Origin: a virus
Taxonomy: Duplodnaviria > Heunggongvirae > Uroviricota > Caudoviricetes
Length of the DNA stretch: 41,067 bases
IMG/VR virus record: IMGVR_UViG_2541047898_000010
Direction: 5' to 3' (one strand)
Below are positions 9,051 through 9,545 of this stretch, one piece after another (position 1 is the first letter of the stretch; every line of letters starts with the position of its first letter). Made by a program: the position numbers and the translations under genes. The notes beneath the pieces are model-generated. The model was not told where the DNA came from and did no database searches. It saw only the letters and a list, made by a program, of their open reading frames with translations.

Positions 9051-9545
9051 GTGTCTGATTCTATGAGTTACGCTGTGCTAGTTGCCGCAACTCTATTTCT
9101 GGGGATAGGGTTGCAGATTGCGTGGTTCTTTTTTTCTAGTTTTATTAAACGTAAAAGAATTGAATCAAGGATATCTGAGATTTCTATTGCTATAGGGAAA
9201 AATGCTGAAAATCCAGAGAATGAGGCCTGCGCACTGAATTACCTTAAAGAAAAGTTTTCCCCTGAAAAATTTGAAAACAGAATTACTGATGCTCTTGGAT
9301 TGGTAATATCAGTAATTCATATGCCACTAAGTTTGCTGATAACAGTGTGGTACTTCGCCATGATCGCCGGAAGAATATTTGGTTTCATGAATATAGAGCC
9401 TGTAGTTCTTTGGGTTCCAATGATACTGCAATTGTTGTTAAGCGTTGCTATCTTTATTTTTTCTGTTTTTATAAAAATTGTCTTCGGAAGATACCCCGGA
9501 GAAGCGAAGGGATTTAATAAAGAATTCATAAAAACTATAAAATAA
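9051..9545 (+). CDS. AT-rich inner-membrane protein, possible superinfection-exclusion protein (SieA-like position)
   Basis: 164 aa, three or more predicted TM helices, low GC, between ejection-protein gene and immI-like genes. Confidence 0.55.

Follow-up and report, generated by a model that had tools for sequence, protein, structure and literature searches.

By its sequence, the window analysed here (the whole stretch of DNA, 41,067 nucleotides) is a complete P22-like genome, running from int to the early genes, of a prophage of the E. coli type. Its virion genes have their closest relatives in E. coli/Shigella phages (Sf6, HK620, N7) and its early genes in HK97/HK446. Ejection, tail, head, terminase, lysis, nin and replication genes are present together with an immC region, and the features to which we refer below are as follows.

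1-1158, integrase gene
1310-4053, + strand, gtrA, gtrB and a GtrC-like gene (gtrABC), adjoining the integrase gene
4084-5934, - strand, tailspike gene
6070-6324, + strand, Mnt/Arc-family gene beside the tailspike gene
6560-7375, - strand, antirepressor-type gene (phrog_1726)
7376-8107, - strand, antirepressor-type gene (Bro-N and P22_AR_C), in tandem with the 6560-7375 gene
8076-8249, - strand, Arc/ParD-like gene, 57 aa
8349-8990, + strand, repressor gene of the immI-like region, 213 aa (HTH and S24-like), 60 nt upstream of sieA
8987-9015, + strand, candidate sigma-70 promoter TTGATA-17-CATTAT, a consensus match spanning the repressor stop codon
9020-9053, + strand, conserved 34-nt adapter, TGGTATCCTGCGTAAAACTAAGGAGGTTGGTGTG / TGGTATCCTGCnnAAAACTAAGGAGGTTGGTGTG, the left boundary of the sieA cassette
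9020 to about 9620, sieA cassette, a sharp block of about 600 bp seen in 60-nt sliding identity against P22
9051-9545, + strand, sieA coding sequence, 164 codons with a GTG start, from the ORF list and homology
9568-11409, - strand, gene 16 homologue, coding for a 613-aa ejection/DNA transfer protein with 76% identity to P22 gp16
11406-12815, - strand, gene 20 homologue, coding for a 469-aa ejection protein with 62% identity to P22 gp20 in a comparison of 400 residues
33779-34411, immC CI-type repressor gene

The first-pass annotation had reported a 164-aa ORF on the + strand at 9051-9545, and the list of open reading frames confirmed it. The ribosome binding site that the ORF was said to possess was found as the Shine-Dalgarno sequence AAGGAGG (9039-9045), located 5 nt 5' of the GTG start codon (9051-9053). 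The gene had also been placed between an ejection-protein gene and an immI-like region, in the orientation opposite to the virion operon, and this is indeed the arrangement: it converges on the gene 16 homologue, with 22 nt between the two stop codons, and the immI-like genes lie on its other side. The lower GC content claimed for it was reproduced as well, with 35.6% for sieA in comparison to 46.3% for the window, 47.2% for gene 16 and 42.4% for the upstream repressor gene; only 3.7% of the 495-nt windows taken across the stretch are as AT-rich. The 3' half of the repressor gene, 5' of sieA, is likewise AT-rich (GC 0.37-0.41), so the low-GC tract starts before the sieA ORF. Full-length homologues of 164-165 aa were found down to 55% identity, with 48 invariant positions, which argues against a chance ORF.

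The comparison with P22 SieA, proposed earlier as a check, gave 152 identical residues out of 164 (93%) without gaps (BLASTP, E 3e-114). At the DNA level, positions 9020-9600 were 95.2% identical to the sieA region of P22 and of about 40 other Salmonella P22-like phages, and the protein matched phrog_7745, 'superinfection exclusion SieA-like', over positions 1-164 of 164 (E 7e-109). Its relatives in a set of 5.8 billion proteins, where they carry a name, are called 'superinfection exclusion protein A' (precomputed family PF26849). The C-terminal motif FxRYPxEAxxFNK (P22 residues 145-157), which Leavitt et al. singled out as the best conserved among the SieA types (PMC10883804), is present at residues 145-157; in an alignment of 12 type A sequences no variation was seen at F145, G146, R147, Y148, P149, E151, A152, F155, N156 or K157. 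The 12 substitutions that distinguish the window protein from P22 SieA are mostly conservative, and one of them, N153K, restores the family consensus; the host background also differs, being of the E. coli type. The first-pass annotation had noted that the gene occupies the position at which P22 carries sieA. The locus does lie in the same place, between the homologues of gene 16 (9568-11409) and of the tailspike gene 9 (4084-5934), with immI-like genes in between, in agreement with every case considered in PMC10883804, and as in P22 the gap to the convergent gene 16 is 22 nt. The suggestion of a SieA-like inner-membrane exclusion protein is thus well supported by the protein identity, the DNA identity and the PHROG match. 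On these sequence criteria the gene is sieA itself, an orthologue of type A SieA, and not merely an occupant of the sieA position.

Type A SieA, as known from P22 (Susskind 1974; Hofer 1995; Leavitt 2024 mBio, PMC10883804), likewise has 164 aa, three transmembrane segments and the FxRYPxEAxxFNK motif. The type B protein of the E. coli HS prophage HS1 and the type C proteins of Providencia/Proteus/Morganella prophages share the locus, the core topology and the C-terminal motif, and type B showed the same exclusion spectrum as type A in published tests (PMC10883804). Types B and C are only about 25% identical and possess an N-terminal extension of 30-40 aa with one more transmembrane segment (PMC10883804). 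The window protein, with its 164 aa, has no such extension and is therefore of type A, not B or C. In an exhaustive HMMER search, 62 cluster representatives (50% identity clusters; P0014-P0074, outside the window) were related to SieA at E <=1e-3. They are mostly 160-200 aa long and carry a relaxed GR[YF]PG[EQ]A..RK motif after the last transmembrane segment; in a few far longer relatives (407, 430 and 617 aa) the SieA-like part is C-terminal. Judged from these matches, the SieA family may extend beyond the three types published so far.

Homology to an unrelated membrane protein family, which would have spoken against an exclusion protein, was looked for in several ways, and neither the library nor the PDB searches gave anything else. 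For the 164-aa protein, local Pfam-A returned nothing but noise below the threshold (Kri1, DUF6161), no match came from NCBIfam or PADLOC, the PDB sequence profile search found nothing below E 0.3, and Foldseek of the AlphaFold2 model against the PDB found nothing below E 8. No unrelated family or fold can be invoked on the basis of these empty searches. That the protein merely resembles SieA and has no part in exclusion, being for instance a lysis, toxin or virulence moron, is scarcely credible: full-length identity of this degree to a characterized SieA, at the same locus and with the same motif, together with the lack of similarity to any other family or solved structure, effectively refutes it. 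We found nothing in support of such a function, and the silence of local Pfam, NCBIfam and PADLOC means just that they contain no model for the family. SieA and its role in exclusion are already known, and the gene belongs to an experimentally characterized family. Its coding DNA (491 nt) is 100% identical in 9 complete E. coli genomes among the matches listed, and the allele occurs at >=95% DNA identity in 35 of 5,426 complete E. coli genomes. In most of the E. coli genomes among the matches listed, RefSeq gives this exact protein, WP_001519614.1, the name 'hypothetical protein'; the name 'superinfection exclusion protein A' occurs occasionally.

Several hydrophobic helices had been noted in the protein, and three were found. 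The Kyte-Doolittle plot revealed hydrophobic stretches at about residues 6-29, 81-111 and 117-147, and the AlphaFold2 model (11 homologues, mean pLDDT 76) was all-helical, with helices 3-52, 74-109 and 117-145. The topology prediction that had been proposed as a further check, obtained from hydropathy and AlphaFold2, therefore yields three transmembrane helices, in agreement with the published TMHMM result for P22 SieA. A KRKR cluster after the first transmembrane segment and a basic C-terminal tail also fit the published topology. SieA is thus predicted to have its N-terminus outside and three transmembrane helices, with the loop 30-80 and the motif 145-157 in the cytoplasm. As P22 SieA-FLAG fractionates with the inner membrane only (PMC10883804), an inner-membrane location is predicted for the window protein by analogy. 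With the sides of the membrane assigned from the positive-inside rule and the published topology, nearly all invariant residues are predicted to belong to loop 30-80 and the tail, both cytoplasmic, or to the membrane segments; the predicted periplasmic residues number only about 15 (about 5 + 10).

The function of SieA is well documented for P22. When sieA and the 85 bp preceding it were present in single copy in the chromosome, plating of P22 fell by at least 10^7 and lysogenization by 10^5, and P22 SieA abolished the K+ efflux that accompanies DNA entry (PMC10883804). Exclusion is confined to P22-like phages and functions in E. coli too; in plating against P22 SieA, CUS-3 gave <=1e-8 and HK620 about 0.3 (PMC10883804). 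P22 escapes by up to three changes in the C-terminal parts of the ejection proteins gp16 (G532W, P546S) and gp20 (T338I, T341I, A348T, G350D), P546S on its own being of little help, and P22 hybrids with HK620 ejection proteins are partly resistant (PMC10883804). In the authors' model, SieA acts at the inner membrane, where it disturbs the gp20/gp16 conduit in its assembly or function; as an alternative, they proposed that SieA masks a host factor such as YajC (PMC10883804).

On this basis we consider it very probable that the gene is the type A sieA of a complete E. coli-type P22-like prophage and blocks the gp20/gp16 conduit of superinfecting phages. The prophage would produce a small three-pass inner-membrane SieA; when a second P22-like virion adsorbs and releases its ejection proteins, SieA at the inner membrane would prevent the trans-envelope conduit of gp20/gp16 from forming or functioning there, the DNA of that virion would fail to reach the cytoplasm, and the lysogen would be neither killed nor lysogenized. 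We infer that the window allele behaves like the 93%-identical SieA of P22. Direct contact between SieA and gp16/gp20 is a model taken from the literature; we adopt the conduit model as the most likely, with the YajC route as its main rival. In that rival the gene and the phenotype are the same and the route is indirect: SieA would mask or sequester a host inner-membrane factor, e.g. YajC, needed by the tip of the conduit.

Besides having been raised by the authors of the SieA study, the indirect route agrees with the failure of P22, even of the SieA-escape triple mutant, to plate on a yajC deletion host. Types A and B are about 24% identical yet exclude the same very divergent sets of E-proteins, which is easier to understand with a conserved host partner. 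The predicted topology also counts in its favour, since the invariant residues are nearly all cytoplasmic or in the membrane and only about 15 residues are periplasmic; a SieA so little exposed to the periplasm is awkward for contact with periplasmic gp20. However, escape arises through mutations in gp16 and gp20, and the E-proteins of HK620 give partial resistance; exclusion is also overcome in part at high multiplicity of infection, and the authors take this to mean that the E-proteins titrate SieA. We therefore regard the masking of a host factor as rather unlikely, and the action of SieA on the gp20/gp16 conduit as the preferred explanation.

The ejection proteins encoded by the window could be compared with the P22 escape positions. 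In gp16, P22 G532 is kept as G536 and P22 P546 is replaced by T550; in gp20, the wild-type (sensitive) residue is kept at all four positions (T336, T339, A346, G348). Five of the six escape positions thus keep the sensitive residue, P546 being the only one that differs (Thr). Since gp16 is of the P22 type and the sensitive residue is kept at five of the six positions, the phage's own virions should be excluded by the resident SieA, as in P22. An HK620-type, SieA-resistant gp16 was considered and rejected: the window gp16 is P22-type (76%), not HK620-, Sf6- or CUS-3-type. We also noticed that the stretch of gene 16 most diverged from P22 is 9681-9800 (residues about 537-576), with 53% nucleotide identity in comparison to 65-80% elsewhere, and that it adjoins the positions of P22 escape changes (G532 -> G536, P546 -> T550). 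This divergence could be the signature of an arms race or simply a mosaic joint.

Other phages carry functionally comparable systems. HK97 gp15, Lactococcus Sie2009 and Streptococcus Ltp are also prophage membrane proteins that block DNA entry, and their escape mutations map to injection-conduit or tape-measure proteins, comparable to those of SieA. They act, however, on long-tailed phages and do not belong to the SieA family; no sequence relationship was found. Within P22 itself, SieB, gtrABC and the C2 repressor are, like SieA, expressed from the prophage against superinfection (PMC10883804). The step at which SieA acts is DNA entry, unlike that of the other three. The gtrABC genes alter the O-antigen receptor, the repressor prevents phage DNA already inside the cell from being expressed, and SieB aborts lytic growth. 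With the gtrABC genes of the window (1310-4053), this prophage has, like P22, a second anti-superinfection system, one that modifies the receptor.

The similarity of the locus to P22 has sharp limits. Identity was 93-98% over 9020-9560 and 88% over 9561-9620; outside this region it fell to about 40% on the left and to 50-75% in the rest of gene 16. Because P22-like identity is confined to this sharp block, from 9020 to about 9620, sieA can be described as a cassette of about 600 bp, which takes in the last ~17 codons of gene 16. In its base composition and cassette behaviour it fits the label 'moron' given in the first-pass annotation: the cassette is discrete, AT-rich and horizontally exchanged, and it is situated inside what the literature calls the 'ant moron' (PMC2629481). 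In P22 the annotated PsieA promoter lies 31-61 nt upstream of the start codon, and the left edge of the cassette is 31 nt before the start. PsieA was looked for in the window and was neither alignable nor conserved, as expected from its location outside the conserved block; its place is occupied by the end of the same-strand repressor gene. In P22, sieA is preceded by a divergent hkcC-type ORF, orf59a and mnt, whereas in the window it is preceded by the 213-aa repressor gene on the same strand. The sharp cassette and the replacement of PsieA by the end of a repressor gene are new details.

The left boundary of the cassette is formed by the 34-nt adapter (9020-9053), which comprises TGgTATCCT (9020-9028), the Shine-Dalgarno sequence and the GTG start codon. 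We infer from its sequence that TGgTATCCT may act as an extended -10-like promoter element. P22 has the same 34-nt leader, Shine-Dalgarno sequence and GTG, with one difference, at the two variable bases of the leader; apart from these 2 free positions, the adapter does not vary among P22, JEP4 and E. coli prophages of three upstream contexts. The window contains it once and shuffled sequences not at all (0 times), and an exact-pattern scan of IMG/VR found it in at least 119 contigs. Copies were located, among others, at L001 3001-3034, at L002 4721-4754 and in loci L007-L086 of our collection.

We read 127 instances of the adapter (80 IMG/VR loci, the window, P22, JEP4 and four E. coli genomes). 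There, its GTG opens 13 unrelated single-ORF families of 62-164 aa, situated behind 11 upstream sequences, and cargo and upstream type assort almost freely. JEP4, for example, has a different ORF of 62 aa at this GTG; an 'orf62' has been noted in phage L in the literature on this region. A hydrophobic segment at or near the N-terminus is clear in 11 of the 13 cargo families, one of the others being signal-peptide-like and one soluble. Of the 12 non-SieA cargos, ten were scanned, and none of these ten had a Pfam match or a PHROG of known function. In seven families the stop codon of the cargo lies 17-24 nt from that of the convergent gene 16. The gene-level variability of the region corresponds to the 'ant moron', with ten types in sixteen genomes (PMC2629481). 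A description of the adapter was not found in the literature searched, which does not prove it undescribed; we regard the shared 34-nt adapter preceding unrelated cargos as a new detail.

Taken as a whole, the adapter appears to unite a joint for recombination with a module for translation initiation. As all 13 cargo families open in frame at the adapter GTG, this codon is very likely the true start of SieA, giving 164 aa; Leavitt et al. had called the start codon uncertain (PMC10883804), and the shared adapter supports the GTG. We also put forward, tentatively and as a proposal more doubtful than not, that sieA is one occupant of a one-gene exchange slot extending from the adapter to the end of gene 16, and that the 12 other cargos are alternative envelope exclusion proteins directed at incoming phage DNA, exchanged by recombination at the adapter in the course of an arms race with ejection proteins.

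Some further observations concern cargo of this kind elsewhere. A 134-aa signal-peptide protein is encoded at 34408-34812 (+ strand) and its start codon overlaps the stop codon of the immC cI gene (ATGA), so that it is probably expressed in the lysogen. It belongs to phrog_2651 (E 1e-58), as does the alternative cargo found most often in the sieA slot, and the two proteins share 29% identity. In the prophage of E. coli Res13-Lact-ER02-39, which has an identical sieA, a ClpP-like protease gene, a Panacea-domain gene and a partner ORF lie upstream of the adapter (L004, 666-2122). The region upstream of the adapter also gathers other defence-like or toxin-antitoxin-like cargo.

The loss of PsieA raises the question of how sieA is expressed in the window. 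An intact gene that recombined behind a foreign repressor gene without the P22 promoter could be silent or weakly expressed and give little exclusion. Apart from the promoter itself, the rarity of the arrangement points in this direction: the repressor gene, 98.4% identical to a gene of E. coli phage JEP4 annotated 'repressor protein C2', is present in 89 complete E. coli genomes, and its junction with sieA in just 1 of 5,426. The promoter-like match at 8987-9015, situated where P22 has its PsieA, is at the level of chance, the scan of 8000-9800 having found 3 sites in comparison to 4.5 expected from shuffles, and is on this account only a candidate. However, no terminator or stable hairpin was found between the repressor gene and sieA (leader fold z = 0.43). 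The two genes are on the same strand, 60 nt apart and with no terminator between them, so co-transcription is possible; by immI logic the repressor gene should be expressed in the lysogen, and read-through would give the right pattern. In addition, the adapter, with its strong Shine-Dalgarno sequence and extended -10-like motif, serves 13 cargo families behind 11 upstream sequences, suggesting that expression does not depend on one upstream context, and in P22 even low transcription of sieA suffices. A silent gene therefore seems improbable to us. Judged from the sequence features, an active sieA would be expressed by read-through from the repressor gene, from the candidate promoter at 8987-9015 or from the extended -10-like element of the adapter. 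Directly after the sieA stop codon there is no canonical terminator, and the nearest terminator-like site (9639-9656) is inside gene 16. A structured regulatory RNA was also considered and rejected, as neither the leader (z = 0.43) nor the 3' region (z = -1.68) has a remarkable fold.

The immI-like region upstream is itself composite, with three putative repressors (Mnt-like, Arc-like and S24-like) and two different antirepressor-type genes. The 213-aa repressor has Ala at the position of the catalytic Ser (EGEAMT, in comparison to EGNSMT in lambda CI and EGDSMT in the immC CI of the window), and it keeps the partner Lys of LexA/CI-type proteases (SFKQV). Because of this replacement of Ser by Ala, it is probably neither self-cleaving nor SOS-inducible, and a repressor of this kind would probably suit the role of an Mnt-like maintenance repressor. 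Between the Arc-like gene and the repressor gene lies a divergent control region (8250-8348) with a - strand promoter match, TTGACT-17-AATAAT, at 8327..8299, a palindrome, ACTCA-gta-TGAGT, at 8311-8323, and a 10-nt direct repeat, AATGAATTTT, at 8326 and 8348. The palindrome was spotted by eye; the repeat tool reported no inverted repeat. By their sequence and position, these are possible operator elements.

The value of the assignment lies first in correct annotation, the RefSeq 'hypothetical protein' WP_001519614.1 being a characterized SieA. The adapter also provides an easy sequence tag with which candidate exclusion genes can be retrieved from P22-like prophages. By analogy with P22, the identity of the gene as sieA predicts that this lysogen would resist most P22-like phages, and this predicted resistance bears on phage typing, transduction and phage therapy of E. 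coli.
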